Assembly (NCBI GenBank): GCA_003990765.1
Contig: RBNJ01000344.1
Coordinates: forward strand, 1-32,514
Direction: 5' to 3'
Source: Jimgerdemannia flammicorona
Taxonomy: Eukaryota
DNA length: 32,514 bases
Part shown: positions 4,197 through 32,514 of the stretch, one piece after another
Numbering within the stretch: position 1 is the stretch's first letter
Layout: the number at the start of each line of letters is the position of its first letter
The notes under the pieces: generated by a model
Told to the model about the DNA's origin: nothing
The model's database searches: none
Seen by the model: only the letters and a program-made list of their open reading frames with translations
Program-made: the position numbers and the translations under genes

Positions 4197-4208
4197 ACAC
4201 TTTTATTC

Positions 4209-7843: not shown

Positions 7844-7965
7844 TGGGCCCTTCCTTGTATTATTATTACATAGTAGTAGGTTGGGTTCATTGTTGTTCTA
7901 AGGTAATCGCTGAGAGACAGGGAGAGTGTAATTCTTAGACTAGTGGAATAAAGGAGTCCAAGTGA

Positions 7966-8024
<59 letters not shown>

Positions 8025-8035
8025 TGGTCCACAAA

Positions 8036-10445
8036 CACCACAATAGCATCATAGCCTGTTTTGGTTCATGGGAGTTGCACAATGAAGTTCATTGTGACTT
8101 GTTCAAACTTCTTGGTTAGAATTGACAAGAGTTGTAGAAGACTAGCAGGTGCTTGGTTGCTTGACTTGTTTCTTTAGCAAAGATCACAGCTTTGGACATA
8201 CTCCTTGATTTCCTTGAGCATGTTTGGCCAGTAGTAGTCTTGTTGAATATTCTTGATGGTCTTCTCAGTTCCAAGGTAACCAGCTAGTGGAGAGTCATGA
8301 TGTTCATGAAGAATCTTATACTGTAGTTCAGGGTTGGTAGGAATATATACTTTGTCTTGATAATACATGAGGTTGTCCTTGATAGTGTACTTTTTCTTGA
8401 ATTCCTTGGTATTCCTTTGTAGAACCAGAGAGTCTTGTTTGTACACCTTCTTGATCTGATTGAGAAATTCAGATACCATGGTGATTTGTAAGATTGTGGC
8501 AAGATCAGGTCTTCTTGATAGTGCATCTGGTATAACTAGAGTTTTGCCAGGCTTGTAGATGATTTTTGGGCTAAAGGTCTGCAGTAGTTGACTCCACTTG
8601 ACTTGTTAGTGAGAAAGGGTTGGTTGAGTATTGATGTACTGAAGGGATCTGTGATCGGTGATCATGTCAAACTCAACTCCTTCTAGATAGTATTGCTAGG
8701 TCTTAAGGATATACATGATTGCCAGGAGTCCTTTTCATGAGTAGCCAGCTTTTGTTCTGCTGGGGACAATTTTCTTGACTCAAAGGCAATAGGTCAGTAT
8801 CCTTGACCATCATCTTGAGAAATGACTGCACTAATGGCAAAGTTAGATATATCTGTAGTGACTGTGAATTTCAAGTTTGGGTCCATATTTCTCAGGACAG
8901 GTGCATGGGTCAGGTGGTTCTTGAGTTCTTGAAAAGCTTGTTGACAGAAAGCATCCTAGATGTAGGGGACATAGAGGTCAGAGTTGGGTTCCTTTCACAG
9001 GAGGTTTGTCAAAGATTCTGCAATGCTAGAGAAGTTCTTGACAAATTGATGGTAGTATCCAGTCAGACCAAGGAAGGACCTGAGTTCAGTGAGGTTTGCT
9101 GGTACAGGCCACTGTTCAATGGCTTGTATTTTCCTTGGGTCTACTTGAATTCCTTTGGCTGATACAATGTGTCCAAGGTATTTGACTTGATCCTTGAAAA
9201 ATTCACATTTCTTGAGCTTTGCATAGAGCTTGTTCTCGCAAAGGATCTTGAGGACTTGTTCAATATGCTTGAGGTATTCTTCTTCAGTGCTACTGAAGAT
9301 CAGGATGTCATTGATGTATACAAGTACAAAGATATAGAGCTGGTCCTTGAAGACAGTTTGCATGAGATCTTGAAAGGTTGCTAGTACATTGGTGAGACCA
9401 AAGGCCATGACTAGAAATTTGTAGAGTCCAAAGGAGGTCATGAAGGCAGTCTTGGATATGTCTTCTGGCTTGATTCGAATTTGGTGATACCTAGAGGTGA
9501 GATCAATCTTGGTGAAGTACTTTGCATTTTTGAGAGCATCAAAGATTTGATCTATGAGCAGTAGTGGGTAATGATTCTTGACTGTGATCTTGTTGAGTGC
9601 TTGGTAGTCTATGCACATTCGCAGAGTATCATCCTTTTTCTTGACAAATAGGACTGGGGAGCCAAAGGGTGACTTGCTTGGCTGAATGGCTCCTTGCTCA
9701 ATGAGTTCATTGAGTTCCTTCTTGACTGCTTTAATTTCTAGTAGAAATATGCAGTATATTTTCTTCTTAGGTATAGCTGCATCAGGTACCAACTTGATTT
9801 TGTAGTCATGGTCTCTTGAAGGTGGTAGACCAGATAGTTTGTCTGGGAAGACATCCTTGTATTTGTTCAGCAGTAGCTTGACACTTTCACTAATTGATAG
9901 CTTCTTGTCTTCTTTCTTTGGTCAGATCAGTACCACAAAGGCACAGGTAGCTTTCTTGAGGGCCTTCTTGAACTGAATTACTGAAAGGTAGCAATTGGGG
10001 TTTTTGTCTGAGTCTTATCTGGCTTGATAGTAATGTTGGTTCCATCCTGAATCAGGGTGACTTCATTCTTGGTCCAATCAATCTGAGGGTTGTGTTGTAT
10101 AAGCCAGGGTTTGCCTAGGATCAGGTTATGGTCTCCTAGTGGTACTACCTTAAAATCTAAATGTTCCCAGTACTTCTGGATCTTGAGAGGGAGTTTAGCC
10201 ACAATTGAGTTAATTGGTAAGGTGGTGCCATCTGCAGTGACAACTCCACCATTCTTGCCAGCTGGTTTGGTAAGAATCTTGAGCTTGTCGATGAGGTTCT
10301 TGTTGATGAAGTTCCCAATAGCTCCACTGTCTATGAGAACATCTAGTTCTTGTCCCTTGACTAGACCTTTGAAAATGAGTATTGAATTGGCTTGGTTCTT
10401 GGCTATGCTTGCAACTTTGTCAGTACTGCCAAAGCCTTTCTGATC
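8036..10445 (-). pseudogene. Gypsy A protease, RT, RNase H and integrase N-terminus
   Basis: LIDSGA (aspartic protease), SKSPFGSPVLFVKKKD..LRMCIDY, YINDIL (eroded YxDD), LRSFLGLTGYY, HEHHD...YYWP...SCDLC (HHCC). Confidence 0.95.
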
Positions 10446-10790
10446 TCACTTGGTTGAAGACAGCTTGGTGACTTCTTTGATGACTGGTAGGGTGGCTCGC
10501 TCCAGAATGAGCTGTGCAATTTTGTCTCCTTCATTAACAGTATATAGTTGGTTCTTGTGGTTGACTAGCAGGACTTGCATTTCACCTTGGAAGTCAGGGT
10601 CAATGACTCCAGCACTAACATCTAATGAGTGCTTGAAACTGAGACCAGATCTTGGTACAATCCTTGCATAATGTTTTTTGAGAATTTTGACTGAAAGGCC
10701 AGTTGGAATGAGCCTTCTTTCATGTGCAGGAATAGTGACTTGTTGTACTGCTTGAAGGTCCAAACCAATGGCTCCTTCTAACTATGCTTG
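10422..10790 (-). pseudogene. dut: dUTPase domain of Gypsy A, between gag and protease
   Basis: All five motifs: AIGLDL, PRSGL, GVIDPDFQGE, GDKIAQL, *DQKGFGST (motif V Arg is now TGA). Confidence 0.95.
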
Positions 10791-10814
10791 AGAGATCTGG
10801 GCCTTGGAGTTGAC

Positions 10815-11864
10815 TCATATGAAATTGAGTACAACTTCTTGTTCAACTGATTGACCTTGAGTGTCTTTGGACAGGATCAGGATCCTCTTTGGTTCAGCAG
10901 TTTTCTTGGGACATTTGGTTGCAATGTGACCAGGCTGATGGCAAAAGAAGCAGGCTCCAGCCTTCTTGAGGTGCTCCTTTTCCTCAGGTGTAAGCTTGCC
11001 TTTCTTGCTCTTGTCGATAGTGTCTAGGTCCATGGGGGCAGGTCTAACAGTTCTGACTTTGGGTTCCTCCTTTCTGTGGTTGTTATTATTGTTGAAAGGC
11101 GGTCTCTTCTGTTCAAAGTAGTGACCATAGGTGATGACATCAAATCTATCAGCAATCTTCATTACTGTATCTAGGTCCTTGGGTTCTTCTAGTTCGACAC
11201 GAACTCGGATTTGACCTTTTAGGCCTCAGATGTACTTGTCGACCTTCTCGTCTTCAGTGATATGTGGTAATTCTAGCAGAATTGATAGGAATTGTGTATT
11301 ATATGCTTATACAGACTTGAGTTGTTTGACATTTGCCAGACAGTCTTGTGCAGCCTTGGTGCTGTTGACTGGTTTGAATTGGTCTTAAATAGTATCAGAG
11401 AATTCACCCCAGTTCTTGATTTGGCCAGAGAATCTGGTATTCTGGACATGATTTCACCACCAGATTACAGCATTCTCTTGGAGGAGTGTGGTGGCGAATT
11501 AGACTAGTGTTGCTTCTTCCAAATTGGTCAGTTCTCCATATTGCTCCAATTGGAAAAGCCAGGCATCAGTAGACAGTCCTCCTCTTTGACCATCAAAAGT
11601 GTCAGGTTTCTGAGGCTTGATAGTGACTGCTGTCAGATATATTGATGTCAGTAGAGGTATAGAGGTATGGGCAGAGGCCTTGCTTTCCTTTCTTTCTATA
11701 TGTTCTTGAAGTTGAGCAATCTGAGCTAATATGGTCTGCAAAAGACTCTCGATGGCCCCATTTGACTGAGTAGGGTTTTGCTGTTCCTCTTCTTCTTGCT
11801 GATTGTATGAGATATTGTCTGGACTATAGGTACTGTATGAAGGGTTCCACCCATTATCCTCCAT
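10815..11864 (-). pseudogene. Gypsy A gag with CCHC zinc knuckle
   Basis: KPDTFDG...AWLFQLEQY, PAPMDLD, CFFCHQPGHIATKC. Confidence 0.93.
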
Positions 11865-11918
11865 AGTGTTGTAACTAATATCTTGAGAGGTATCTTGATA
11901 AGGCTAGGTGTAACTTAA

Positions 11919-11930
11919 CTGCTGCTATCA
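11919..11930 (-). promoter_or_regulatory. Primer-binding site of Gypsy A (probably initiator tRNA-Met), mutated
   Basis: TGATAGCAGCAG 2 nt inside the 5' LTR; element B has TGGTAGCAGTGG at the same position. Confidence 0.75.
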
Positions 11931-11932
11931 AG

Positions 11933-12337
11933 TGTAATGGTTCTAGTTTCTAAATGAGGAAGCGACTAGTTCTGGTTGTTCTAAGTAGCTCAAAGAGATA
12001 CTTAAGGATTCAAGTATTCTCAAAAGATTTCTGAGAGAAAATATTCTGAGACTTTATTTATGAGAATAAAGGGAATATTTATACAAGATCTAAAGGAAGG
12101 ATCCAGAAAGATCTGAGAAATCAAAAGAAAATGCCAAGAGGAAAGTTCTTGGCAAAGATGACAAATGATGACAAATAAAGTTCTACAAGTTTTCAGGATA
12201 TTCCATGACTAGCTAAATAAGTACTAGTTAATGCTCAGTGCTAAGAAGGAAATTTCTAAGTATATGGAAAGTACTGGAAGGTTATAGAATATTTAAGAAA
12301 GACAGAGAAAAGAAATAAACTATGCTAAAGTATTACA
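11933..12337 (-). repeat. 5' LTR of Gypsy A
   Basis: TGTAATGG...TATTACA; TATAAATA on - strand at 12076-12083. Confidence 0.97.
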
Positions 12338-12695
12338 ATATAGTATATATTCCATATTCTGTTTAATTCTCTACAATTACTTAAATTCTTTGAATTTCTC
12401 TAAAATCTCACTGTTTGCTAATAAGAAGTATATATATACTTTATATATATAATTATTAATAAATATAATAAAATATTTCTTCCCACTATAGGAAGTAGTA
12501 TGTATCAGACTACATATATTTATATGAATTAAATTAAGTATACTAGATATGTATTTTATCCATTTCTGAAATAGTCATCAGAATACTTTATTTACTATAT
12601 AGTTCTTATAGAAGTTATTATCAAAATATATATATACTAGCAATCTACTCACTGAACTATTTCTGATTATCTTTTCCAGACTTGATTTGTCTATA
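12338..12695 (-). pseudogene. Ty1/Copia relic continued: GAG-pre-integrase/zinc-binding region and N-part of the integrase core
   Basis: Reads FYKNYIVNK...LNLIHINICSL...SGKKYFIIFINNY...YFL...SEILEKFKEF, i.e. eroded FCxxCxxGK...LDLIHTDVCGP...GGKKYFVTFIDDY. It joins 141-448 across the ATATA TSD. An eroded 'LGHIG' continues across the hAT TSD to about 19182. Confidence 0.8.
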
Positions 12696-12779
12696 TAGTG
12701 CTCCAAATAAGTCAATTCAAATCAAATCCGGATTCAATTTGTCACATGATGGTTTAATCCAAATCTCAAATCTGAAGCT

Positions 12780-13131
12780 ATCTGAATCAACTTGGATTTA
12801 ATCTGAATCGCCCCATCTGAATCGCCCCATCCAAATCACCCATCCGAACCACCCCAATCTGAATCACTCAATCCAAATCACTCAATCCGAATTGCCCCAT
12901 CCGAATTGCCCCATCCAAATCACCCATCCGAATCACCCATCCGAACCACCCCAATCCAAATCACTCAATTCAAATCACTCAATCCAAATCACTCAATCCG
13001 AATCACTCAATCTGAATCACTCAATCTGAATCACTCAATTCGAATCCTCCAATTCGAATCCTCCAATTTGAATCCTTCAATCCAAATCCTCATCTGAATC
13101 CTTCAACTGAATCCTCCAATCCAAATCCTCC
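12780..13131 (+). repeat. Left subterminal tandem array of the hAT (13-14-bp units, consensus about CCGAATCACTCAAT / CCGAATCCTCCAA)
   Basis: More than 20 tandem degenerate units, with CCGA/CTGA/CCAA variants. Confidence 0.9.
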
Positions 13132-13225
13132 ACATGACTCATATGCCGGATGCATCCACAACACAATACACATACATGCATACACACACACACATATACA
13201 TGCACATGCAAACACATAAACACAC

Positions 13226-15835
13226 ATGTCGACAGATCAGTCTTCAACAGTTCACAGTACCGATGATGCTTCAAGTCAAACATCCCTGATAGTTCCATAC
13301 CTTCTATGCAATCCTTGCTCTGAAATCTGGCAATATTGTGCTAAGATAGGAGATGATGTTGTTTGTAATTATTGCAGGTAAAAAATTAAGACACACCTAT
13401 TGACACTTTGCTTTGACATACATATGATATTATTTTGACATACACATGATATTGTTTCATCCACCCCCATGAACTACACCACACCAGCCAGAAGTTCAAA
13501 ATGCTTGTGGGTATGACTTCGAACATGAATCAACATATAAAAGACAAGCACCCTGACAAAATCAAAAAGAACATGGAGACAAATAAAATTGACATCCAAG
13601 CTGTGGTGGGTATGTTTATCCAATTGCCCAACCATTTCTGTACCAATAACGCCATTTAATCAAAAATATTTAGCCATACTCTTCGGCAGAATTTCGAAAT
13701 TGGCTCATTCGCTGGATTGTGTGCACAGACCAGCCATTCACAACCATCGAGAGTGATCAATTATATAGCATCTTTGGCATCCTCAAGCATGATTTATATT
13801 TGCCAAGTGCCGATACTATTCGCAAAGATGTCCTGGAGGCCTATAGGAAGGAGCATGACAATCTCCACCAGACACTTCAGGTAAAATAAGGGCAGCATCA
13901 TGACCTTTGCAAGCTGAATTATATAAAAGAGCTCACCAATTTAACCTCACATTCAATAAGCAGAATTCGGCAGGCAAAATTTCGTTTATGATTGACACAT
14001 AGACATCCCCCAATGCAATTTCATTTCTGGACATTACCAGTCATTGGATTAACCTCGATTGGCAGCTTAAATCTCTCACCCTTGACTTCGTCAAACTTGC
14101 TGGCCCTCATTCTGGAGACAACATCATAGATGCTTTTATTAGTTGTATCTGGGAGCTTGGGATCACCACCAAGGTAAAAAAGGGGGGCTTGCCGTCAGGT
14201 CAGCGTTTTGAGGGAGGTCCTAAACCAAACTAAACCAGATTTTATTGGTTACTTATTTTCACATAAATTTGTCAACCAAATATTTCAAGTACAGATTTTG
14301 GCCATTACGACGGACAATGCTACAAACAACTCAATATTTTTCCAAGATTTAGTGACCAGCCTCAAATAGGAAAATGTGGCCTTCAGTACAGAAAGCTGCC
14401 ATGTGCGATGCCAGGCCCATATACTGAACCTCACTGTTCAGGACTATCTTATGCACATAGACAAAACATCCGAGAGAGAAGGGGCCCTGAGTATAATTTC
14501 CAAGCTGCACAAACTGGTTGTGTTGGTCCGATCATCCCCACAATGATGAGACAAATTCGCTGCACAGTATAGGGCAATCAGTTTAGCCCCGAAAGAGCTT
14601 ATATTGGACATCTGTACACATTGGAACTCAACATTTGCAATGATCCAGTGCACGCTGGAGTTTGCTGTAGTATGCATCCTTTTTTTCTTTAGTCGGCTGA
14701 AGCAACTGTTTTGGATGATGGAAGATTTATTTTAAAAAAAAAAAAAAAAAAAAAAAGTCAATAGATTCAACAATGGCTGCTGACAAGGAAATATGGGCCG
14801 AGGTTCTAGGCAAAAGCGAGTGGGATGTACTTAGGAATGTTGTCAGAGTTTTGGAAGTAAGTGGTGATTGCCCTGGCTCCATACTCATTTGTCTGCCTCT
14901 GCACAATGCAACACCTCACCACATATAACTGCCAGTGTTTCGACGATTGTACAAAGGATATAGTCAAACAAATGACCCCGACAATAAGCTCTGCAATACC
15001 GGTATACAACCTTCTGATTGACCAGCTAGAGGACAAGCTTGAGGACAGGCTGGAGGGTTGTGATGATTTATGGTTAAGCCTGGATCAGAGAGACGCTGTG
15101 GAGGTTGCTCTAAGCAAGCTTAAAAAATACTACTCCCAAACAGATACTGCCATATACTCAATCAGTACAGGTATGTCAATGTCAGCATATGGCCATTGCC
15201 CCTTCCAAAGCAGAGGAAACTCCGCAAAAACTCACTCTCCTTTTCTTCGAACAGTGCTGGACCCACGCTTAAAGCTACAATACCATAAAGATCAGGGCTG
15301 GGAGCAGCACTTCATTGAGAGAACCAAGTAGGCCGTAATTGAAGTATACTGGAAAAACTACGCACCGCTGCAAGGTTCCAGCTGAAGTCCAGACGAATAT
15401 GCTGAGGGATTCCTCCTGTCTCACATTTACTTCAGCAGAAAGAGGAAGAGGGAGCCATCAGTGGAAGAGCTGCTATCAATAGACAAACTTACCATTTACC
15501 TCGCCAGTGACTGCGTGGTCCTGCTGGAGGGCACAGAGGTACTCAACTGGTGGAAGGTGGGTTGTTAGGCGGGCGTTGGGCCAATTTAACCCACTAATCT
15601 AACCCACCAATCTAACCACCACTCTACCCACCGGGGCATGCAGCTGCATCAAACAGACTTCCCCAGCCTGTGTGGTATGGCTCAGGACTACCTGGTGATT
15701 CCTGCCTCCAGTGCTCCCATCAAGCGGGTGTTCTCAGGTGGGGTGGACCTCGTTGCCCCAAAGAGGTGTGCACTGAATGCTGAGACAATCCAGGTATGTA
15801 TGTGTCTGAAGTCTTGGTGGGGCTCAGGCCGCTAA
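13226..15835 (+). pseudogene. hAT transposase, about 9 exons (donors near 13378, 13610, 13881, 14174, 14670, 14857, 15171, 15557), inactivated
   Basis: BED finger SEIWQY...CNYC|...TSNMNQHIKDKH; WIVCTDQPF; ISFMIDT*TSPN (first D); HSGDNI; ITTDNATNN (second D); RCQAHILNL; THWNST; LDPRLK; LNWWK; IPASSAPIKRVFS (catalytic E>K at 15722). Stop codons present; the phase at intron 2 is uncertain. Confidence 0.93.
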
Positions 15836-15944
15836 AATTCGGCAGGTCCACGGATAAGTTGGTTGGCCTTGAGGAATATTTAACACCTTTCAAAATAATA
15901 AAAAAGGAAAAAAAACCTGAGGACTCAGCCTAGAGTTTGTGGCC

Positions 15945-16455
15945 AAAGTGGGGCAGGGTTGGCAGCGGCGGCGGAGGGAGCACGCAATATTTGCGGTCCT
16001 CAGCCAGCAGCAAGGGGCAGCCCCAAGCTGCCAGTGCCCGGGTCAGTGGGCGGATTGGTGGGCGGGTTGGTGGGCAGTGGGCGGGTCAGCAGAGGGAGCG
16101 CACAAAATTTGCGGCCCTCCACCGGCAGCAAGGGGCAGCCCCAAGCTGCAAGTGTCCGGGTCGGGGGGGTAGGTAGAGGGAGTGTGCAAAATTTGCGGCC
16201 CTCTGCCAGCAGCAATTGGCAGCCCCAAGCTGTCAGCACCTGGGTCAGTGGGCAGGGTTGGTTGGTGGGTGCGGGGTCGGCAGAGGGAGCATGCAAAAAT
16301 TTGTGGCCCTCTGCTGGCAGCAAGGGGCAGCCCCAAGCTGCAAGTGTCTGGGACAGGCGGGGCAGGCATAGGGAGCATGCAAAATTTGCAGTCCTCTGCC
16401 AGCAGCCCTCCACCAGCAGCATAGGGGCAGCCCCAAGCCACCAAGGAGTCTGGGG
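15945..16455 (+). repeat. GC-rich degenerate tandem repeat (about 5 units containing AAAATTTGCGGCCCTC..CAGCAGCAAGGGGCAGCCCCAAG)
   Basis: Recurrent GGGGCAGCCCCAAG near 16014, 16132, 16217, 16324 and 16423. Confidence 0.85.
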
Positions 16456-16460
16456 CAGAG

Positions 16461-16580
16461 AGTGCTTCTGGTAGTCGGAGGGTGCTTTCTGGCAGTCAGA
16501 GGGTGCTTCTGGCAGTCAGAGGGTACTTCTGGTGGTCGGAGGGTACTTCTGGTGGTCGGAGGGTGTTTCCAGCAGTCGAA
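16461..16580 (+). repeat. 20-bp minisatellite (GGGTGCTTCTGGCAGTCGGA, about 6 copies)
   Basis: Direct tandem copies visible at 16481-16560. Confidence 0.9.
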
Positions 16581-16787
16581 GTCACCAGTTCGGATCCCAC
16601 AGGCACTCCAGCCCTGTGCCGCAGTACCGCACCAGCGGTACTACAGAGCAGGGCCGAGGGGCCGGTAGGGCCCTATATAATGGCTAAGCTAGTGCTACAT
16701 AAGAGGCACCTGGCCCAACCCCCCCACATAAGACTGCCCAACCCACACAAAATGGCTGCCTACCCCTCATGAAAGATTGCCTAACCC

Positions 16788-18809
16788 TCACAAAAACTGC
16801 TCCACCTGCCAGTCCCAGGCCTTGATGAGTCTATCATCCATTGTGAGTGCAACAACTGTTGTATCCGAGCTCTCCTCAAAGGCGACGGTACTGTGGTAGT
16901 CATGTGGTTGGAATAGGATGGCCATGTTGGCCACAAATGGGACCCCAAAACCATAGATGAGGTCATACCAGACTCTGCCACTATCCTCCCAGGTTGGGCC
17001 CTTTCTTTCCAGTACGTAAAACATTACCGGAGTGACATTATTGTCTGTGTGTGTGGGCAGAGAAAAGTTGTGCCCGACATATCCTGATGTGATGCAGGTG
17101 TACGGTTGGGTGAACCCTTGGCCCAGGACCTCATACTGCCAGGCTGTGCTGGTGGATGCCTGCCCTTGGTCCAGCCCCGGGAGCCCCGGCTTGGAAACCT
17201 GCCAAAACAGATGGCAACTGGTCAGTCCTTTTTGCGTTCGGGGGGGCAGAAACCCCTGGGCCACAGAAACCCCCCAGGCTGCAGCACCCCAAAAAAGCGG
17301 AGCTCCTCACCTCATACGGCACACTAAATTGTACCAAGAATGTACATATAGCTACACCAAGATCACCACCAAGCTGGCCTGCCGTACACTCTACCAATCT
17401 GCTCAAAGAACCCCAGATCATAGCTGCCATCGCTGCACAGGCCGTGTCGTGCTCATGCGCAGTTTGCTCTTTGACGGCACTTCTAAAGTTCCAGTAGGAG
17501 TACAGAATCTTGTGCATCCCTGGATTTGTATCAAAAAAGAGTATGTCAGTAAAGAGTGTGATTTATCTGGGGAGGGGTTAAAAAAAAAAAGGGAGATGAG
17601 TGCGAGGGATTTCGGAACTCTGGAACCCACCCTTCGCCAGTGTTGCAGTATACCCAATTCCTGTCCAAACCCCCCCTCCTTGCTTTTTTTGCCCCCTCTT
17701 TCCTGCCACCCAGTATTTGATGCAATTCTCGCAAATCTCATTGATGTGGCAGCAAAGCTCGTTGCCATAGAGGTTCCTTACCACCATCGCAACCACCTCT
17801 CCATGTTCGTTAATAAAGATATAGTTCTCTTTGTCGTTAGTTACTCCTGCTGACCAATGGACCCCTTGGTTGAGTACGATTGGCTCTGATTCGAATGTAG
17901 ACCCCCAAGCCTTGATGACGATGCCAGTACTGCTCATGCTGAACATCTTGCCCTCGAATTTCTCTATTTGATCAGACGCCAGACATAGTTGAACTCAGGT
18001 AACTTTGAAATCTCCTTTCCAATAGAACTGAGCCCTGATCTGAGGGACCAAGATAAGTATGTGGACGGGTTACATGCAGGTGGATTGCATGCGGGCAGGT
18101 TGTGGGTGGGTTGCATGCAGGTGGGTTGTGTGCAGATGGGTTGCATGCAGGTTGCGTGCAGGTGTGGGTGTTTTTTAGGGGGAGACCACGTAAAAATGAA
18201 ATTAAATAAAACACGGAGGTGGGTATTTCAGAAAAAGAGCATGAGTGAGTGAGCTGCATGCTGATGAGTTGCACGCCGACAAGTTGCACAAGTTGCACAA
18301 GAATTGCTCACGAAGGCTTGCTTCTGTTCCTTTTGAGACCTCTGCCATGCAATGCATTGACTCAACAGCTCAGCCACCAAAGGCATGCCCCACAACGTCT
18401 GCCAGCCTTTCTTCATCTTGACCAGATATTGCGAATAAAGTCGGCAGATCTTGCCATAGAGCTGTGGACCCTAAGAAAAGCATGAGGTGAATTGGGTCAT
18501 GCTGGGGAAGTTTAAATAAACACAAGTAAACAAGTGGCAGCTGAGTGAACAACCTATATCTACTATCAGCTGCTCCAAAAAGGCTGCTGTGTACATAGCT
18601 GTGAGGTCTGTGAATTCCGAGGTCCGAAGGGCTGCCGTGAGTTGTTGCCAGAATTCTCCCTCATCCCTGCCATTGCCATCGCCACCGCCACTGCCGTCAC
18701 CCCTTTGGCTCTCGATGAGCAGCTTGTGTGCTGTCCATATGAGAAAGAATCTAACATTGTCAGCAGAGAGTGCATTTCTACCTCGAATACTCCCTCTTTT
18801 GATGATCAT
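16788..18809 (-). pseudogene. hAT cargo gene: putative TET/JBP-family Fe(II) dioxygenase (about 477 aa, 5 exons: 18809-18564, 18470-18312, 18039-17631, 17519-17311, 17198-16788), one in-frame TGA at 17997-17995
   Basis: Four GT-AG introns join the exons in phase (1434 nt total), with CTGAC branch points in introns 3 and 4. The last exon has HNFSLPTHTDNN (HxD) and AILFQPHDYHST (distal H), resembling JBP-type NF...HTD / LLF....HGNT motifs. The exon 1 boundary is the least certain. Confidence 0.7.
18062..18170 (+). repeat. About 15-bp minisatellite (GGGTTGCATGCAGGT) inside intron 2 of the cargo gene
   Basis: About 6 degenerate tandem copies. Confidence 0.8.
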
Positions 18810-19011
18810 TGCAGGGTGAAAAATGAGTAGACTGGACCAACATATGAATTAAGGGCTGCTGTTTTGTTTGCTCATAATGCAGCAGGAAAGAACAAAGAAA
18901 AAGAACAAAGAAAAGAGAGGGAACAAAGGAAAGGGTGATATTACCAAAGTACGGCAGAAAAAAAAAAACAAGAGTGAAATGAACAAAAGAAAGGGTGATG
19001 TCACCAAAGAT

Positions 19012-19150
19012 TTCAATCCAGATGGATCAATCCAGATGGATCAATCTGGATCAATCCGGATCAATCCGGATCAGATCATGAGACCAATCCGAGTTGATTC
19101 GAATCTATCACATGATAAATCTGAATCGAATCTCATCCGGATCAACTCCA
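19012..19150. repeat. Right subterminal repeats of the hAT (10-bp GGATCAATCC units; GATTCGAATC palindrome)
   Basis: Tandem gatcaatccg/gatcaatcca/gatcaatctg next to the right TIR. Confidence 0.85.
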
Positions 19151-20012
19151 TTCGTTCGGAGCACTATGTCTATATATTCTAAGCAGAGATAAAAGAGAAT
19201 ATAACAGAAGCCTAAGAAAGGAGAGAACCAGAGGGTCCAGAGGCAAAACCTGAGTCAAAATTGAAGGAGATAGAAGAAAGACAAGATATGAAAAAGGTGA
19301 GAAATAAGGATAGACAAAGAACAGGGTAGAAATTGTATCTATTGTTTATTATTATATAAAAGTACAGTCCTTATATATAAATATAAAGTCTCAAAAAGGA
19401 ATAATGTACTATAATATAGAGATAACCAAATTAAGAACCTCATATCATATAAAGATAAGAGAAGAACCAATCTCAGAATAAAAATAAAAATCAGAAACAA
19501 ATAAATCCAAATTGAGATTAAAAAACATTCTAGCCCCCTCTGGGGTCTTATATTTATTTTAAGGTTTTTGATCTTTACTTTACTCCTCTCTGCTATCTTC
19601 AGCCCCTTAGCTTTATCTTGAGCTTACTATAGCTCACTTTACTTGACCTCAACTTCTTGCTCTCACTCACCTCTCTGAAGTCTGCAGATATTTTTTAATC
19701 TCAATTTGGATTTATTTGTTTCTGATTTTTATTCTTACTCTAGAATTGGCTCTTTCTTTATCTTTATGTAATATGAGATTCTTAATTTAGTTATCTCTAT
19801 ATTATAGTATATTATTTCTTTTTAGAACTTTGTATTTATATATAAGGACTATACTTTTGTATAGCAATAAACAATAGATGTAATTTCTATCCTATTCTTT
19901 ATCTGTCCTTATTTCTTGCCTTTTTTATATCTTGTCTTCTCTCTTTTTTTATAGTCACTTGGACTCCATCTTTATTACCAGTCTATGAATAAGTATACAA
20001 TATCACCACTCA

Positions 20013-23000
20013 CTATTCTATCCCCATAGGGGGGCTCCTCCCCACCTCTTCATGTATAAAGACCACCCTCTCACCAACAACTCCAACTCTCCCACCACTC
20101 TGACCACAGATTTTTACTACTAAGTGGTGCCTCCGACCCCCCTGCAACCCCCAACCAAGCCACCAGCCTATCAAGGTGTCCTCCATAAGGCACTGCCACT
20201 GTGATAACCAGCTCTTCAAGCTCTGTCGCCTCTTCTCCTCAAATACAAATAGCCAGTGACTGGCCAGCCCAACCCAAATAGCCAATGCCCAACCTAAAGT
20301 AATCTACTCCACCTCTACCCCTCCTACCAATTGATCCCTCAGGTCCTCCCACCTTCCCCGTACATCATCTCCCCTATGCCTCACCCCCAAGTAGTCCCCA
20401 ATGGCCTGCCAAAAGTCTTCCAACACCTCACACTCCCCTAGCCAATGTTCTGGTGTCTGTACAAATCCCCCTTCCTGCCCTACATTATGGCACTCCTCGC
20501 AGTCAAAGTAGCCCCCTACGACAAGGTGTTCTGAGTGGAAGTTAAGCATTACATTCCTCCTCAGCACACACCACCAGACCACCCAGTACTTCAGCAGTAT
20601 CCATTTTTTCACTGTGGCGCTCCAGGTCCAAACCCCATGCCAGTCCCACTCCTCTTCAATTCCAACTCCTTGCCAACTGCTAGGCTACAGATCCTGGCCT
20701 GGTCCCCTTTGGCATTTCACTTCACCACTAATGTTGAACTCAGGTAAAGATATGCTGTCTAGTAGAATGCCATCCTATCTCCACATCGCCGGGCCCCAAG
20801 CCCTCTCTCCCTCATTCTCTTGCCAGCGAATACCAATGCGATGTGCCCCCTCTGCTATCCCCCATCAGAAGCCTTTATATTGCAATTGTGCAGTGTTCTG
20901 AAGCCCAACAAATGAAAGATCACTAGTCAAGCCTCTTGGTGACGACTGCCTCTCCCAGACCTTCTGCAGCAGGGGAACCCAACCCCCTCCATGCAACTCC
21001 ACCACCCTCTTAAGCCACCATGCTCTTAAGCAGTGTAGTCATTTGGGGAAGTCCACCAGCCCAAGACCACCTCTCGCCACCAGTAGGGACAAAGTCTCCC
21101 AACCAATCTGACTCCGTCTACTAGCCCAAATCCATCCCTTAGCCACCCTCACCAATCTCTTCACCACCCAGGCTGGGAAGTCCAGATGATAAGCCAAATA
21201 CCATAGCTTCGGCAGTCAGTATACATTCAAAATCATGATCCTTCCTGCCAGAGAGAAGTGTCTTCCCCCCCAGCCCCGCAGGTCCTCCTCCCAAATTCCA
21301 ACCCTCTGCTCCCACCACAGCCTGGGCAGAACAGACCCATAAACCAACAAATAGATACCCAAGTACTACACCGCCTCTCCAGCAGAGACAATTGTTCCAA
21401 TGACCTCTCCGCCCACCAGGCTATTGCCCAGCACCATTGTTTCACACTTGTGCTAATTCAGCTTCACCCCAGAGTTCTCCTCATACCACTCCACTGTCTT
21501 CTTGAGCTCCTTGACATCTGCAATTGCTCCCAAACCAACCACCATGTCATCTGCAAAGGCTCCAACTTTCCAGCCAACTCTATAGATAGAGAGCCCCACT
21601 ATCCTCTGCCGAATTCTGTCCATCAGAGGTTCCAAAGAAAGAGTATACAAAATGGGGGACAGTGGGTCCCCCTGGGGCACTCCCCTACTCAGAGGGAATG
21701 CTACCCCTCTATGCTCATTACACAAGAGTGCAGCCCTACTCCCTTCCAGTAGGCTGACCATTGCTGACTGAAATGGGACTGGAACCCCAATTCTATCTAA
21801 TACTTTTGCCAGCCAGACTCACTGCACCTGGTCATAAGCCTTCTCCTGATCCAAGAAGACAAGACACCCATCCAGTCTACAGGCTCTAGCACCTTCAATA
21901 ATGCCATATACCCAAGCTGTGTCATCTCTAATAAGCCAACCCCCTACAAAGCCCCTCTGCTCAATACTAACAATTTACTGGGCTACCTTCTGTAGCCTTG
22001 CAACCACCACCTTAGTCACCAACTTTCAGTCCATATCTAGCAACATTATTGGCCACCAGTTCTTCCAATCCTCTCACCTTCCTTTGTTCTTATAAAGCAG
22101 CATCACCAGCCCAAGATCCTGCTCCCCCACCCATCTCCCTAACTGCAATATAAAATCACACAGTGCTGTCAACTCCCCCAACATACTCGGGACTCCAACC
22201 ATTCACTTCCAGAAGTCCCAGGGTAGGCCATCCTCCCCAGGCACTGTACCTGAAGCTGTCGCAGCAAGAACCTGGCAGATCTCATCCTCCTTTACAGGTA
22301 TCACCAGGTCACCTAGTCCCTCAGCTTGTAGTGGGTGTCAATCTTCCAATGTTCAGTCAATGGCAGTAGCATCTGCCCCACCCTCCTCCTCACTCCACAA
22401 TCCACTCCATCATTCCTTCAGTGTTCCAAGGATATCCTGTACACCATGCACTAGTATACCATCTGAGTCAAGTACCCCTTCCCACCACTGCTGTACCCTT
22501 CTCACTTAAAGTGTCCTCGAGAGAAACTTGGAAGGCCTCTCCCCTTCCTCCAGCCCCTGCCAACAAAGCCATGCCACCAGACCTTGCATCCTTGACTCTT
22601 CCTCTTCCCATAGTACCTGTTGTAGTTCCCCAACCTCCATCTTTACCCTCATTATTCTTCAATCCTCTTCTCCCAGTCTCGCCCACTCCTCTAGGAGCCT
22701 AGCTAATCTAGTAGAAGCCCAATGTACTCTCCACCTTCGCTGCCTCCCAGCCTCTCTGCCAGCCTCGCTCTAGTATATCCTAGCCATCTCTTTCATCCTC
22801 ACCCACCAAACCCCAATTGGGACCCCTTCCTGCTGTCAGTTCTCCACCTTCAGCTGAATGTCTTTCGCCCACTCCTCCCACCAGGACTCATCATTCATCA
22901 AGGAGGAATTTAGGTACCAATGTCCAGGCCCATCACCACTTCCCCCAAAACACCCCTGTCCCAAAAGGCCCCAGTGATCTGACCATAGACACCATTCCAC

Positions 23001-23677
23001 CTCTAGCATCTTCCAAACATCGTGGCCTCAACAGTTGGCCATCAGAATCCAGTCAATCCTTGTCCCTAGGCCTTCAGCCCAATGTGTATATACCCTCCTG
23101 TCCCCCCAGTACTCTCTACCAGCATCCACCAGCACTCCTAGCCTTTCAACTTCCTCCCACATTGCCAGCCCCCCACTCCTGCTCTCAGCACCCCATCCTC
23201 TATCAGTTCTATTCAACTGTATATCCCAAACCATATTGAAATCTCCTCCAAGCATATCCACCCCAGCTTCAGCAAGGATCCCACTCTCCTGGAGCCTTTC
23301 ACCCAATCCACATGCTCCCCCTACATGGTAGGACAATAACAGGAGCCAACTGTGACTGGCTCCCAACCTGCACGAATCCACTCACCCCAGACCAGTCTCT
23401 CCCCCCAGCTCCTCACATCCCTTATCTCCCCTCTGCCTTTCCAAACCAGAATCCCAACTTTGCTGTTCCAAATTGCCATGCCTCCCCATTCCTTTGTCCA
23501 TTCCATCCTATCAGAATCATCCTCACACCTGACATCCTGCAAGAGGAAGAGATCAGCCTCCAATCTCTTCAGCTAAGTAAAAATGTTCCTACATCTAACT
23601 GCGCCCCTTAGCCCATTCACATTCAAAGAAAAAATGTTGATTGTACTGTTCAGAGTTAACTACAGTTTGTTCTCCAT
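20013..23677 (-). pseudogene. LINE 2 ORF2 (APE endonuclease plus RT)
   Basis: SLNVNG, LLQDV, GGDFN, RIDWILM, GVPQGDPLSP, AFADD, CEEC...PEHWLGEC. Many stops and frameshifts. Confidence 0.93.
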
Positions 23678-23683
23678 CGATCT

Positions 23684-25708
23684 CTACTGCTCTATGCTCA
23701 TCTCCTCCTGTACTATGTCCAGATTATGTTCAGCCATCACCTCCACCTCTTCAACCTCCTGAGCCTCCAATTCAGCCAACAGCTCATTCATCTCCCCATC
23801 GGCCTTCTCCTCAAACTTCTCTCTGTACTCGATGCAAGCCTCCTGCCAAAGCTGCAACCCATAATGCTTGTTCCAACAGTACTCAGCCCTCTCCCCAGTG
23901 ATAACCACCATCTCTGCCTCCCGCTCCTTGTCCACCTCATACCCTTCTTCCTCCAGATACACCGTAAGAATTTCTGCCTTCAGTGTCATCACCACTCCTT
24001 CCCCCTGCAAAATTCTCATCCAGTGCTCATCACCTATCCCACGCAAGTCCACCTCCCCCAGCTCTTCTGCTGCCAGGTTATTCATCATCTGGCACATCCA
24101 AAGTAGGTTCCCCACCTCCTTCCCACCAGGGGTTGCCAGCCTCCCTCCATCCAGCATCGTGGTGTCAGCTCTGGCACTCGCATCCTCATCCCACACCTCT
24201 GGGACATCCACCAGTTCCTCCTCTCTGGCCGCCACTACTTGATCCTCATTTATTACCTCCAGAATGCTAAATTTCACCTGCTGGGTCCCCAGCATCATCA
24301 TGTCCTCCCCATTCTTGTTCCTGGAAGCCAGGCCATGCCTGATAAGAGGGGAAGGAGTGGGGGAGTTCTCCCAGACTTCATCCCAAACCTCCAAGGTGCT
24401 ATCAGCATATGGGTCGCTAAACTTCCCCTCTTTTGCCTTCCCTATCTCCACCCCATCATTCCCACTCCTCTCACCAGCCCAGATGCTTGCTCCGGCCCCT
24501 TCCACACCCATCTTCTTGCTCGCATCCTTCTGTAGTCCACCCCCCAGTTTAGCCAGTAGATTCTTCTGTCTCTTCCACCTCTGAGTCCTTTCCCACTACA
24601 CCTTGTCCACTCGAATCCTCTTTCCATCCACCACCTCCAGGTGCGTCGACTCCTCGAAAGTCTTCCAGGCCTTAGCTTGCCGCTCCACAGCCCCATCCAG
24701 TTCCTCCAGCACTTCTAATAAATCCTCTTCCTCTTCTTCACTTTCTTTCACCCTTGCCACCTTGCACAGGATCGCTCCCTAAACCATCACCGAAGACCAG
24801 TTCCTCGCCTTCCCAGTAGCCTCTTTTCCAGCCAGCCGAATCCTCACATCCACATCCCCAGTCCTGAGCATGGTCCCTTTCCAGACCCTGAATCTGATAT
24901 CCACCACCTCTCTATACTCCGCCATGACATCCTCCACTCTCTTTCTCATCTCCATCACCATCACCATGGGTACTCCTTTCACCAGCAGCTGGACCACCCT
25001 TGGATCCCACTTCAAACATCTTGCCATCGGAACACACACCTCCCCAACCACCAACCCAACCTTCAGTGCCTCCTCTAGTGGTTCAGCCTCCTCAAAGCCC
25101 ACCTCCACACCCTCCAGTCCCTTCAGAAACTTCACTGAAGCAGCTCCCGCCACCTGCTTAGCGATAAGCCCCAGCACCATTTTTGCCATCACTGCTAAGC
25201 CCTGGAAGCACAGTATAACTGCGAATGCTGAGATTGATTTCTTGAGTAATAGGGCCACCACCAGGCCCATCACACCATCTGCCAAATCTCCTTGTCTTCC
25301 AAGCCCCAGCTACTCAGCCTCGCCAACAGCTGTCATATCTGGATTTTTTTCCAGATTAGCAGTCCTGTCGCCATCAGCAGTCACACTCCCCCCAGCTGCT
25401 ACTCCCCCAGCTTCACTGCCCCCCCTTCCAAGGGCTACTCCCCCCTGCACTGCTGCCTTCTTGTTCTTCTTGCCCCTCCTCAGCCAGCCCTCCAGCCCCG
25501 ATGCCTGCTGCCTCCCCTTCACTGTCTCAGCAAAGCTTGCCCTCCCAGACCCCTGACCTCCACCAGTACCTCTACCCCTTCCTTGTCCACCTGCCAGCAG
25601 CCCCCTCATGCTCCCCCCCAGGCCTGGACCCCTCCCAACTTGCTGCCATTCAAAAGCACTTGGGCCACTCTGCCCAGTACGCACCTCAGCTCACCTATCA
25701 GTTGTCAT
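23684..25708 (-). pseudogene. LINE 2 ORF1
   Basis: ATG at 25708, Gly-rich N-terminus, MARCLKWDP / GKEATG shared with LINE 1 ORF1, acidic C-terminus. Confidence 0.82.
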
Positions 25709-26075
25709 GTTGTTAGTCTCTTTGCTCCAAAAACGATATCATAAGTGCCTTCTAAAGGTTGTGTAACCTGAGTGGTACCAGAGAAAGATGTCTTTCAAAG
25801 GTATCTTGTCTTCTCTCTATCTCTTTCAATTTTAACTCAGCTTTATCTCTAGACTCTTTGGTCTTCTCTTTTCTTGGACTTCTATTACACTCTCTTCTAT
25901 CTCTACTACTATTAACACAGTTATAGATGAGGATATTCCTTCTTCTTCTCTTCTTCTCTACTTTATTCCTACCAATATATATCTCTTTTAACTCTTATAT
26001 ATTGTCTGCTATTCTCTCTCTCCTTCTTGACCTTTGCTTATTAGACTACCCTCTTCTCACTTAATTCTACTTGGT

Positions 26076-26539
26076 TGTAGCAGTTCTAGTTTCTTCAAGA
26101 GGAAGCAACTAAATCTGGAAGTTCTGGTTGGCTTAAAGTAGCTCAAAGAGATACTTAAAGGTTCAAGTATTCTTGAAGGATTTCTGGGAGAAAATATTCT
26201 GAGCTTTATTCAAACAGAGAATAAGGATATTTATATATGATCTGAAAGAAAGATCTGGAAGAATCTTGGAAAAAAAGAGAAATGCCAAGAGATAGGTTCT
26301 CAGCAAAGCTGACTAATACTATTCTACAATGTTCCAAAAGGTTCCATAACTAGCTAAGACAAGATGCTTGGTGCTAAGGAAAGACAAGAATGTTCTAATA
26401 GTGTCTGGGTACTGAGAGAAGATTTCTAAGCAAGTAGAAGGTAATGGAATATAGTAAAATGTTCAAGAAATGACAAGAAAAGACTAACTAAAAGATGCAA
26501 AAATATACTAAGACTAAATATGACTGTGATATTGTTATA
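26076..26539 (-). repeat. 3' LTR of Gypsy B
   Basis: TGTAGC...TGTTATA, matches 31725-32192 (4-bp ATAT indel); adjacent eroded PPT at 26540-26555. Confidence 0.95.
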
Positions 26540-26599
26540 TCTCTCTCTCTTTAAGAACTAATATTCTCATTAAGTTCTTAGATAACACAAGACTAGATA

Positions 26600-29500
26600 T
26601 ACTTAACCAAAATTTCTCAAACTTGAATTGGCATATTGGTGGAGATTGGCCATCCTTGTATAGAGCAGAGGATCTATTATCAGACTAACTAACTAGGAGG
26701 AGTTTGAATCTAGCTAGTAGCTTCATTTCAGTAGACTTTTTGTTCATTAAATGTTCTGCTAGTTCTAGAGTTCCAAAGTAAACTTCTGATACATAAGGTA
26801 CTGGTTATTGCCATAGGTTGTTGATAATCCAAAGAAGTTACTACAGGGATTGGACAATATATTTTGCCTTGAAGTCTTGAACTAGATCTTGAGAGTTCTT
26901 GAGGTTGACCAGTGATTCCCAGGTAGCATCATATTCAGGATAACCCATCCACTTGACTAGGTATTCAGGATGGCAGTAGCAGATTCATTTGTTAAGAATT
27001 TTTTCAGCTTTATACTTGATATAGTCTTCAATGATCATAAGGGTGGAAGGCTTAGGAATTTGACCAGGGTAGGGTGGTGACTAGTTCCAGATCTTGAGGT
27101 GTGACACATGAAAGACTGGGTGTACTCTTATAGTTTCAGATAGCTTGAGGTGGTAGGAGGATGCAGAGACTTGTTCAGTGATCTCAAAAGGTTCAATATA
27201 CTTGAGTTGGAACTTGTTTGAAGGGCAGTTGACTTGAAATTGTATCTTGAGGTTCTCAGTAGACAGTAGGACTTGATCTCTAATAGTATAAGTGATATCA
27301 CAGTATTTCTTATCAGCATACTTGGCTTGATGCTATTGAGCCTTCTGAAGATTTACAGTAGTGATCTTAAGTAGTTCATCCATTTTTTCTGTAAGGTTCT
27401 TAGCAGTTAGAACTTGTATTTGACTGGTTTTCTTGAAAGGAAATAGACTTATAGGGGTCTCAGGATCTTGATCATGGAGTAACCAGAAAGGGAAAAGACC
27501 AGTAGATGATTAGACAGCATTGTTGTATGCAAACTCTACATAAGTCAGGTAGATGTCCCAATAATCTTACTTGTAAGAAACATAGTTTCTAAGTATTTGT
27601 TCTAGAGTTCTGTTCATACACTCAGTTTGTCCATTAGTTTGTAAGTAAAAGACAGTAGACATAGCCAATTGGGATCCCAAAGTCTTGAAGAGGGTTTGCT
27701 AGAAGTAATTGATGAACTTGGGGTCATGATCACTAACAATTACTTGTGGTAGAATATAGTGATGGAAGATAGACTTGAAGAAGATTCTTGCAATCTCAGA
27801 TACAGTAGCATTGATAGTGATTGGTTCAGCAATCATAGTCTTAGTCAAGTGGTCAATAAATATGATGATAGTATCAGCACCAGATTGAGTTCATAGTAGT
27901 TGAGTTATAAAGTCCATGGTGACTTGCTCAAACTTCTTGGTAGGAATTGGCAGTAGTTGTAGTAAACCAGTAGATGCTTGATTGGTAGACTTGTTGTATT
28001 GACATAGATCATAGCTGGCAACATAGTTCTTGATTTCCTTAACCATGTTTGGCCAATAGTAGTAGCATTGGATGTTCTTGACAGTCTTCTCAATTCCCAG
28101 GTAACTGATGAGAGGGAAGTCATAGTGTTCTTGCAAAACCTTGTAGTGTAGGTTCATGTTTTCAGGTAGATAGACTTGGTCTTGATGATAGATTAGATTA
28201 TTCTTGACAGTATATATATTCTTGAGTTCATTCAAGAAAACTCTAGTGGTAACTGTGTCTTCTTTATAAGCTTGCCTGATTTGGTCTAAGAATTCTGATA
28301 CCAAGGTGACTTATATGATTGTGGCAAGGTCTGGGCATCTTAATAAGGCATCTGGTACTACAAGTGTCTTGCCAGGCTTGTAGATGATCACCAGATTGAA
28401 GGTTTGAAGCTTGAGGCTCTACTTGGCTTATAGATATGATAGAGTAGGTTGGGTGTTGATATACTTGAGGAATTGATGATTAGTAATGATATCAAACTCA
28501 ATACCTTCTAGATAGCATTGTCAGTAGTCTAGTGCATGTATTATTACTAGTAGTTTCTTCTCATGAGTAGCTAGCTTTTGTTCAGCTGGGGCCAGCTTGC
28601 AGGACTCAAAAGAAATAAAGCAATATTCTTTGCCATCATCTTGTAATAGGACTGCTCTAATGGCAAAATTCAATACATCAGTAGTGATCATAAATTTTAG
28701 GCCTTGATCTGTATTATGTAGGACTAAAGCATGGGTTAGATAGTTCTTGAGTTCTTGAAAGAATTGTTGACAGAAGAGGTCTCAGGTATAGAATATATAG
28801 TGGTCTGAGTATGGGGCCTTCCTCATGAGATTAGTCAGTGGCTCAGTAATACCAGAGAAGTTTCTGACAAAGTAGTGGTAATAGTTAGCTAGACCAAGAA
28901 AGGATCAGAGTTCTGTGAGGTTTGATGAAATGGGCTATTCTTCAATTGCTTCTATCTTGTGTGGGTCTATTTGAATTCCTTGTGCAGAGACAATGTGGTC
29001 AAGGTATTTGACTTATTCCTTGAAGAATTTACACTTCTTGAGCTTAGTATAAAGCTTGTGTTTTCATAGGATCTTTAGAACTATTTGAATGTATTTGAGG
29101 TATTCTTCTTTAGTTGCACTAAAGATCAGGATGTTGTCAAGATATATCAACAGGAAAATAAATAGTTGGTTCTTGAATATCTTGTTCATCAGGGTCTAGA
29201 ATATGATAGGTATATTGGTGAGATCAAATGCTAAGACCAGGAATTTGTAGAGTCCAAAAGGGGTTATGAATGCAGTCTTGAGAATGTCTTCTGGCTTGAT
29301 TTGAATCTGGTGGTATTCTGACATGAGGTCTAACTTAGTGAAGTATTTGGCATTCTTGAGAGCATCAAAGATTTGATCAATCAAGGGTAGTAGATAGCAG
29401 TTCTTGACAGTAAGTTTGTTGAGTACATGATAGTCTATATATATTCGCAGGGTATCATTCTTCTTCTTGACAAATAAGACTGGTGAGTCATAAGGAGATT

Positions 29501-31634: not shown

Positions 31635-31710
31635 TTCGGGTTTGTGTAACTAGTTGTGACTGGTTTCCAAATTCATGTAAGGTTTCTTAATAAGGCAAGG
31701 TATAATGACA

Positions 31711-31722
31711 CCACTGCTACCA
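31711..31722 (-). promoter_or_regulatory. Primer-binding site of Gypsy B (probably initiator tRNA-Met)
   Basis: TGGTAGCAGTGG, 2 nt from the 5' LTR; complementary to ...CUGCUACCA-3'. Confidence 0.8.
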
Positions 31723-31724
31723 AG

Positions 31725-32192: not shown

Positions 32193-32514
32193 TTGGTTCT
32201 TACTCTCTCTACTAAGAAGGCCCACCTTTACTATAATATTAGTGCTGTGACTTTGTCTACTATTTGGTTTTCTATTCTTACTGAAGAGTATTAGTAGATC
32301 TTCTCTAAGGAGATCTATACTACCTCTATTGCCACCAAGACTGCTACTACTGATACTTTATATAATATCACTTCTGCTGCCTCTATTTAGTTCCATTAAG
32401 CTTGTATTACCTTTATGGTCCTTGCCTCCTTCTGTCTCTCTGATACTACTCTCTTCTATAGTTTTATAGCTGATGCAGTTCTCTCTATTACTGCTGATAT
32501 TGAGGCTATTCATT

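Follow-up and report, generated by a model that had tools for sequence, protein, structure and literature searches.

The window analyzed here, a stretch of 32,514 nucleotides (nt) from Jimgerdemannia flammicorona (contig RBNJ01000344.1, positions 1 to 32,514), contains a hAT DNA transposon that carries a transposase gene and, as a passenger, the gene of a putative dioxygenase of the TET/JBP type. The predicted enzyme keeps the iron-binding triad of this superfamily and has no arginine at the place where canonical members bind 2-oxoglutarate (2-OG). The element is made up of the following features (coordinates are those of the whole window).

12696 to 19166, no strand: hAT DNA transposon of 6,471 bp, bounded by terminal inverted repeats (TIRs) and an 8-bp target duplication, holding the transposase and dioxygenase genes.
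13230 to 15835, plus strand: hAT transposase gene, broken in the window copy, with a match to PF05699.
15950 to 16560, no strand: GC-rich internal tandem repeats (64% GC), separating the transposase and dioxygenase genes at their 3' ends.
17631 to 17946, minus strand: exon 1 of the dioxygenase gene as modelled, an open frame beginning with the ATG at 17946-17944.
17520 to 17630, minus strand: intron 1 (GTGGGT...CCAG), 111 nt, phase 1.
17311 to 17519, minus strand: exon 2.
17199 to 17310, minus strand: intron 2 (GTGAGG...GCAG), 112 nt, phase 0.
16791 to 17198, minus strand: coding part of exon 3 (codons 176-311; stop codon at 16788-16790), containing the core with the HxD motif, the distal histidine, and the last strand.
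18303 to 18371, minus strand: candidate remnant of an upstream exon (weak tblastn match with exon 0 of metagenome locus L001, E = 0.02).

The element displays the hallmarks of hAT transposons. Its TIRs, TAGTGCTCC, show a perfect match at 9 of 9 bases and agree at 11 of the first 12, and the 8-bp target duplication, TGTCTATA, is identical at 12688-12695 and 19167-19174. The transposase ends in a C-terminal dimerisation domain (Dimer_Tnp_hAT, PF05699, at 15590-15835; E = 4.1e-12; 46.2 bits for a cut-off of 21.4), and two adjacent in-frame TGA codons (14547-14552) interrupt its otherwise continuous coding sequence. Since the dioxygenase gene lies inside hAT ends with perfect 9-bp TIRs and an 8-bp target duplication, it is confirmed as cargo of the transposon, which is what an earlier interpretation of the window based on its letters, referred to below as the sequence-only reading, had proposed. 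The GC-rich block between the two genes comprises repeat families D8 and D13, with units of approximately 85-118 nt, followed by 21-nt repeats at 16440-16560. Subterminal arrays of short repeats are present on both sides of the element, with 14-nt units on the left (12812-13089) and GATCAATCCGGATC-like units on the right (19010-19150).

The catalytic core was examined with residues numbered according to the spliced 311-residue product of the dioxygenase gene; positions of the type H+n are counted from the nearest preceding histidine of the triad. The minus-strand frame 16788-17306 translates as ...LPTHTDNN...QPHDYHSTVAFEESSDTTVVALTMDDRLIKAW... and then reaches a stop codon. It includes the following residues.

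17043 to 17051, minus strand: HxD motif (H225-T226-D227).
16893 to 16895, minus strand: distal histidine (H277), 52 codons past H225.
16860 to 16862, minus strand: Thr288 (ACA), which a motif alignment made by eye puts where canonical members have the 2-OG-binding arginine (H+11), first residue of the last strand, TTVVALTM.
17004 to 17006, minus strand: Arg240, where the strand after HxD ends (H+15, ...ERKG).
17070 to 17072, minus strand: His218 (CAC), which is Arg (CGC) in most related copies.

An HxD...H triad is thus found in the window (H225, D227, and H277), and the His-His spacing of 52 compares with an expectation of about 50 residues for TET/JBP enzymes. The codons that follow H277 read AGT ACC GTC GCC TTT GAG GAG AGC TCG GAT ACA ACA GTT GTT GCA CTC ACA ATG, and the first basic residue past this histidine is R298 (H+21), the 20 residues in between including neither Arg nor Lys. 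The column of Thr288 was set by eye on short motifs, x-R-L-G-L-S of the published PU type and Q-x-G-x-S of the published PE type, and is motif-based, not structural or computed. With this placement, Thr288 is the residue equivalent to Arg1896 of TET2, Arg289 of NgTET1, and Arg385 of CcTet. The codon table indicates that ACA, with A at position 1 and C at position 2, and GAT are both unreachable from the arginine codons CGN and AGR if only C>T and G>A transitions occur. The spacing of the two histidines, the lack of an arginine between the distal histidine and the final strand, and the impossibility of deriving the GAT ACA ACA codons (16865-16857) from arginine codons by such changes had all been put forward in the sequence-only reading, and all three hold.

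Relatives of the dioxygenase were found as six proteins (P0001, P0002, P0003, P0004, P0007, and P0009) and two metagenome loci (L001 and L002). P0001 is 83% identical to the window protein and covers exon 3 only; P0003 is full length (374 residues). Comparison of exon 3 with representative proteins gave eight matches at E ≤ 0.001, including five relatives (P0001 to P0004 and P0007). P0003 used as the query retrieved only itself and P0009, and a profile search (A2) retrieved only P0003 and P0001. The metagenome scan led to confirmation of two of its 23 pattern matches, L001 and L002; none of the 15 pattern matches in genome contigs and none of the 30 in viral contigs was confirmed as a relative. 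In a word-index search of exon 3 against longer proteins, none of 129 candidates scored. The family is scarce in protein collections. Three proteins were set aside: P0005, a repeat protein, and P0006 and P0008 (932 and 937 residues; 6-7 short stretches), which match only the C-terminal ...IKAWDW... tail, as do WD40 coatomer matches.

Seven sequences (the window, P0001, P0002, L001, P0009, P0003, and P0004) were aligned in alignment A4. H225, R240 (R65 of A4), H277, and 14 other positions are invariant, and D227 is retained in six of the seven rows, P0004 having Asn. Arg and Lys are absent from positions H+7 to H+19 in all seven rows. The residue at H+11 is Thr in the window and P0001, Ala in P0002, and Leu in P0003, P0009, L001, and P0004, within a last-strand pattern that reads x-x-(G/S/A/V)-hydrophobic-(S/T/A) in the clade. 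Since the arginine is missing from all seven aligned rows, its absence was inherited within a small, unnamed clade and does not result from decay of the window copy. The sequence-only reading had named intact paralogs with the arginine as one finding that would speak against it; no relative among the seven rows has this residue, and its observation was stronger than its author knew, because the absence is clade-wide.

The dioxygenase gene has three exons on the minus strand (16788-17946) encoding about 311 residues. Exon 1 was matched by tblastn to residues 91-227 of P0003 and to residues 55-148 of L001 exon 1, exon 2 aligns with residues of P0003 and P0009 and with exon 2 of L001, and exon 3 is homologous to P0001 to P0004, P0009, and L001. 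Removal of intron 1 generates the junction ...AKG|MHK..., matching ...AKGMHC... in P0003 and ...ASGMHS... in P0009. The L001 gene, with an identity of about 30%, carries a phase-1 intron at precisely this position and a second intron within one residue of that of the window. All ten listed indel rows in related metagenome copies fall within the two introns (six in intron 1, including an 8-nt deletion at 17614, and four in intron 2) and none in the exons. The invariance of H225, R240, and H277, the correspondence of the introns with those of L001, and the confinement of the listed indels to introns indicate that the dioxygenase exon is not a chance frame. A donor for intron 1 at 17618, which would split an AGG arginine codon (...GFQR|MHK), was initially considered and replaced by the donor at 17630, because the resulting product matches the AKGMH of the relatives, GTGGGT is a better donor, and the L001 intron occupies the same place. 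A further reason is that, with the donor at 17618, the 8-nt deletion seen at 17614 in related copies would extend into the exon. The true start of the gene may lie upstream of the ATG at 17946-17944. Nothing in the window corresponds to residues 28-90 of P0003 and, together with the weak upstream-exon match, this suggests that the N-terminus of the window copy may be damaged or disrupted, or may be different. Short CAACCCACCTGCATG-like tandem repeats are located at 17950-18290, between modelled exon 1 and the weak match at 18303-18371.

To describe the state of the window copy, contigs of four public runs (X1 to X4) were aligned on the gene as related copies, and the best 40 of 290 differences were analyzed. 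Run X1, labelled soil metagenome, provided 447 contigs, 59 of them at least 99% alike, indicating that the element is a high-copy repeat somewhere. Transitions accounted for 37 of the 40 best-supported differences, and 33 of these 37 were window-derived C>T or G>A changes (A or T in the window, G or C in the others). CpG sites were the location of 16 of the 33, for an expectation of 11% (binomial p = 1e-7). The CpG observed/expected ratio is 0.41 in the dioxygenase gene and 0.01-0.38 in the other elements of the window. The low CpG ratio, the CpG-biased transitions, and the transposase stops point to an old copy that was probably methylated in the past and is wearing down. The C>T/G>A decay noticed in the sequence-only reading is therefore real, and that reading had missed part of the damage, namely the substitutions R218H and R210C near HxD and the two in-frame transposase stops. 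Among the 28 best-supported coding differences, 15 were synonymous and 13 non-synonymous, R218H and R210C included. At position 17071 the window has T; C was found in X1 (49.4 of a depth of 83.1), X2 (22.3 of 22.3), and X3 (6.18 of 6.18), and not in X4 (0 of 2). Arg is the residue at position 218 in five of the seven rows of A4. Codons 288-289 showed no difference among the best 40 of 290. Other copies of the L001 type, L002 (1673-2110), P0004, and P0007, carry damage of the same transition-driven kind: exon 3 of L002 is interrupted by a stop codon, GR is changed to RC in L002 and P0007, HVD is changed to HVN in P0004, and P0007 is truncated.

A further possibility is that catalysis was lost throughout the clade, the protein being a DNA-binding or regulatory passenger or the family a collection of dead copies. 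The missing co-substrate anchor would fit this explanation, as would the broken copies (HxN in P0004, the exon 3 stop of L002, the truncation of P0007, and R218H with R210C in the window). It is nevertheless very improbable, since sequences whose identity to the window is only 27-52% all retain H225, H277, R240, and 14 other residues, Asp is kept in six of the seven rows, and the intron positions and the reading frame are maintained.

Assignment of the window protein to the TET/JBP superfamily, as a divergent double-stranded beta-helix dioxygenase, is supported but not proven; membership is based solely on protein-language-model neighbours and on motif likeness. Of the 30 ESM Atlas clusters nearest to exon 3, 19 carry PF12851 (Tet_JBP), with a best score of 0.93, 179 shared features, and a recognition value of 2335. 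For P0003, the top cluster had a score of 0.96 with PF20515 (2OG-FeII_Oxy_6) on 15% of its members, and 6 of 30 clusters carry PF20515 and 12 carry PF12851. The protein thus has the language-model neighbourhood of this superfamily, which is a lead and not proof. The low-confidence model of exon 3 contains eight strands, and its only matches in VIA-align were cupin/double-stranded beta-helix proteins (27 chains with Z of at least 5; best Z 6.1); with the same model, Foldseek gave no match at E ≤ 0.001 (best E = 0.059).

Several observations weigh against this assignment or against the wider explanation that includes it. The Atlas recognition value of P0003, 2142, is under the 2300 mark of the tool. 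Pfam searches returned no family for the three frames of the window at E up to 1 and no dioxygenase family at E up to 10 for P0001 to P0004, P0009, the L001 pieces, and window exon 1. The PHROGs search gave nothing relevant, and sequence and profile searches of the PDB gave no dioxygenase. Both AlphaFold models, built from shallow alignments, were of low confidence (mean predicted local distance difference test, pLDDT, of 37.4 and 44.1), and the 50 fold matches listed for the low-confidence exon 3 model included no TET, AlkB, or JBP chain. Resemblance to the PE type, like the placement of Thr288, comes from a short-motif alignment made by eye, not computed, and the HxE hallmark of the PE type is replaced by HTD in the window. 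Finally, the 13 non-synonymous changes among the 28 best-supported coding differences indicate weak constraint on the window copy.

The protein could also be some other metal-binding cupin/double-stranded beta-helix protein, with a chance HxD...H and a substrate other than DNA. The silence of Pfam, PHROGs, and PDB sequence searches and the generic nature of the cupin fold matches (Z of 5-6) are in keeping with this proposal. We consider it improbable because the Atlas neighbours are mostly Tet_JBP and 2OG-FeII_Oxy_6 clusters, the likeness to PE-type sequences extends across the whole domain, and carriage by DNA transposons is a known habit of fungal TET/JBP genes (Kojima, 2025; PMC12730594). 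The TET/JBP-like identity advanced in the sequence-only reading is therefore supported, by the language-model neighbours and by the motif likeness to the PE type.

Published fungal types were compared with the window clade by aligning by eye rows of Table S1 of Kojima (2025), namely 5 rows of the PE type, 13 of the PU type, and 3 of the AG type. In this by-eye alignment, the canonical place is occupied by Arg in all three AG rows; by Arg in 8, Lys in 1, and His in 4 of the 13 PU rows; and by Gln in all five PE rows extending that far, none of which has Arg. The distance from the distal histidine to the arginine is 9 residues in CcTet (His376 to Arg385), 10 in NgTET1, 13 in CMD1, and 15 in TET2, a range that includes the H+11 of the window. 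By motif, the window clade appears nearest to the PE type, a relationship that is supported but not proven. It does not belong to that type by its hallmark, since the PE type has HxE instead of HxD (section 3.4 of PMC12730594) and the window has HxD, as do five of the six other rows of A4, P0004 having HxN. We therefore classify the protein as TET/JBP-like, within an unnamed clade that, judging from its motifs, is near the PE type. None of six short motifs of the window family occurs in the available portion of the supplementary file of PMC12730594. The word arginine has no occurrence in the main text of that paper, of which the alignment in Figure 7 or the PDF supplement may already show the arginine column.

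Taken jointly, the data are best explained by a TET/JBP-like clade of hAT passengers in which the loss of the arginine was inherited and 2-OG is likely used in a non-canonical manner; we give this explanation a probability of roughly 0.6. Intact members would act on methylated bases in and around the element, and this action would help the element to escape silencing by CpG methylation, as was proposed for transposon-borne fungal TET/JBP genes (PMC12730594); the CpG observed/expected ratios of 0.01-0.41 in the elements of the window speak for such a role. The clade would most likely still use 2-OG, held non-canonically, a different co-substrate being the less likely alternative. Two residues are candidate holders of 2-OG: the invariant Arg240 after HxD and Arg218 before it. 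In CMD1, Trp358 (H+13, same strand) reaches the spot of the canonical arginine side chain (PMC7854593). If loop lengths agree, a residue at H+15 would point the same way as H+13 of CMD1, one step along the strand; Arg240 is, from this spacing alone, a candidate stand-in for the missing arginine. Arg218, seven residues before H225, is a candidate because it recalls Arg321 of CcTet, which is located five residues before His326 and hydrogen-bonds the co-substrate (PMC11040006).

The alternative, which widens the idea of the sequence-only reading, is that the clade, and perhaps the PE type with it, abandoned 2-OG for ascorbate or another small molecule and makes an unusual base, as CMD1 does. In favor of this possibility, an arginine conserved across the superfamily is absent from all seven rows of the clade and from all five PE rows, and the R385A substitution abolishes the activity of CcTet, in which Arg385 is described as highly conserved across the superfamily (PMC11040006). 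In addition, CMD1 is, by HHpred, the solved protein nearest to the PE type (e-value of 1.4, versus 19 for NgTET), and Kojima allows that the PU and PE types may have some other activity (PMC12730594, sections 3.2.3 and 3.4). However, loss of the arginine is not the mark of CMD1. This enzyme retains Arg410, which aligns with Arg1896 of TET2 and Arg289 of NgTET1, and it excludes 2-OG because the side chain of Arg410 faces away and the site is occupied by Trp358; both structure and assay back the use of ascorbate by CMD1 (PMC7854593). The window protein has no arginine to turn away and has Leu238 at H+13, in place of Trp358, in a register that is uncertain. Besides, the invariant Arg240 and the conserved Arg218 would be available for binding 2-OG. 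Other 2-OG oxygenase families anchor this co-substrate from other strands, which also counts against its abandonment. On balance, a switch away from 2-OG is possible and rather unlikely. Slightly more doubtful again is the more specific proposal that the clade, perhaps with the PE type, would form a lineage using another co-substrate (ascorbate or a different oxo-acid) to write an undescribed fungal base against silencing by CpG methylation.

The CMD1 premise of the sequence-only reading is consequently not supported: since CMD1 keeps the aligned Arg410 (PMC7854593), absence of the arginine is not a CMD1 signature. The analogy with CMD1 is weak and CMD1-like chemistry, including the use of ascorbate, is not supported, whereas the transposon-cargo and TET-like parts of that reading are.

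The remainder of the window consists of retroelements, two gypsy-like with long terminal repeats (LTRs) and two resembling long interspersed nuclear elements (LINEs), with RVT_1 and integrase matches. The LINE-like reverse-transcriptase elements are in opposite orientation (2000-8024, plus strand, and 20000-26000, minus strand), with a GC skew of about +0.45 and -0.45, the coding strand being rich in G and poor in C; the first has a poly-A run at its end (7968-8024). The gypsy-like elements (8025-12311 and 26076-32193) contain RVT_1 and an integrase zinc domain, have LTR pairs that are 90-93% alike, and display CpG observed/expected ratios of 0.09 and 0.01. The left LTR of the first one (449-830) is split from its body by a LINE insertion. 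An AT-rich inverted repeat at 19278-19938, some 110 bp beyond the right end of the hAT element, has 251-nt arms that are 87% complementary and a 159-nt spacer; it may represent a foldback or a further small element.

The L001 dioxygenase gene may also lie within a hAT-like element, because the end of its contig (3500-3610) contains GATTTGA-type repeats resembling the hAT subterminal units. The TIR word TAGTGCTCC is absent from L001 and L002.

CcTet of Coprinopsis cinerea, of the AG type, is to our knowledge the only fungal enzyme of the transposon-borne TET/JBP type studied biochemically so far, and it depends on the very arginine that is missing in the window clade. An iron triad kept under constraint in the absence of this residue allows two readings, a new way of holding 2-OG or another co-substrate, and in the latter case, as in CMD1, the product may be a different DNA base. 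Either would add to the understanding of TET chemistry and of the conflict in which transposons face the defences of the genome. Transposon-borne fungal TET/JBP genes were already known; what is new is a TET/JBP-like member whose hAT carrier makes 8-bp duplications and whose co-substrate site is non-canonical.

Like the window protein, CcTet is fungal and transposon-derived and has an HxD...H triad, in this case His326, Asp328, and His376 (PMC11040006). Its Arg321, just before HxD, is a possible counterpart of Arg218 of the clade. The difference resides in the essential Arg385, at H+9, for which the window has Thr at the matching place; CcTet requires 2-OG and displays little activity with ascorbate alone (PMC11040006). 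CMD1 of Chlamydomonas reinhardtii resembles the window protein as a TET homologue with an HxD...H motif in which no canonical arginine holds a co-substrate carboxylate; it differs in that its aligned arginine, Arg410, is still there.

The PE-type dioxygenases, which occur on transposons of Pezizomycetes and Agaricales (PMC12730594), are closer. Alignment by eye suggests that they share with the window protein the motif ...GE(I/L/V)VA(M/V)V.RN... near the N-terminus, the motifs YG(I/F).(I/V) and P.D.HGT around the distal histidine, and an arginine 15-16 residues after the first histidine (H+16 in the PE type, H+15 for Arg240 of the window). Neither has an arginine at the canonical place and both have another one two residues past the last strand; carriage by DNA transposons and, by eye, the domain layout are also similar. 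They differ by Gln at the place of the arginine, where the window clade has Thr, Ala, or Leu, and by HxE versus HxD.

With the PU type found on hAT7 of Puccinia, the window element shares the association of a TET/JBP-like passenger with a hAT transposase in a single element. However, the target duplication of hAT7 is 7 bp (PMC12730594) and not 8 bp, and the sequences are not recognisably alike; because of the mismatched motifs and the length of the duplication, membership of the window family among the rust PU-type genes on hAT7 was not retained as a reading. In comparison with canonical hAT transposons, the window element has the same short TIRs, 8-bp duplication, subterminal short repeats, and transposase with a hAT dimerisation domain, and differs from them by its interrupted transposase and by the addition of the dioxygenase passenger and the GC-rich tandem repeat block.

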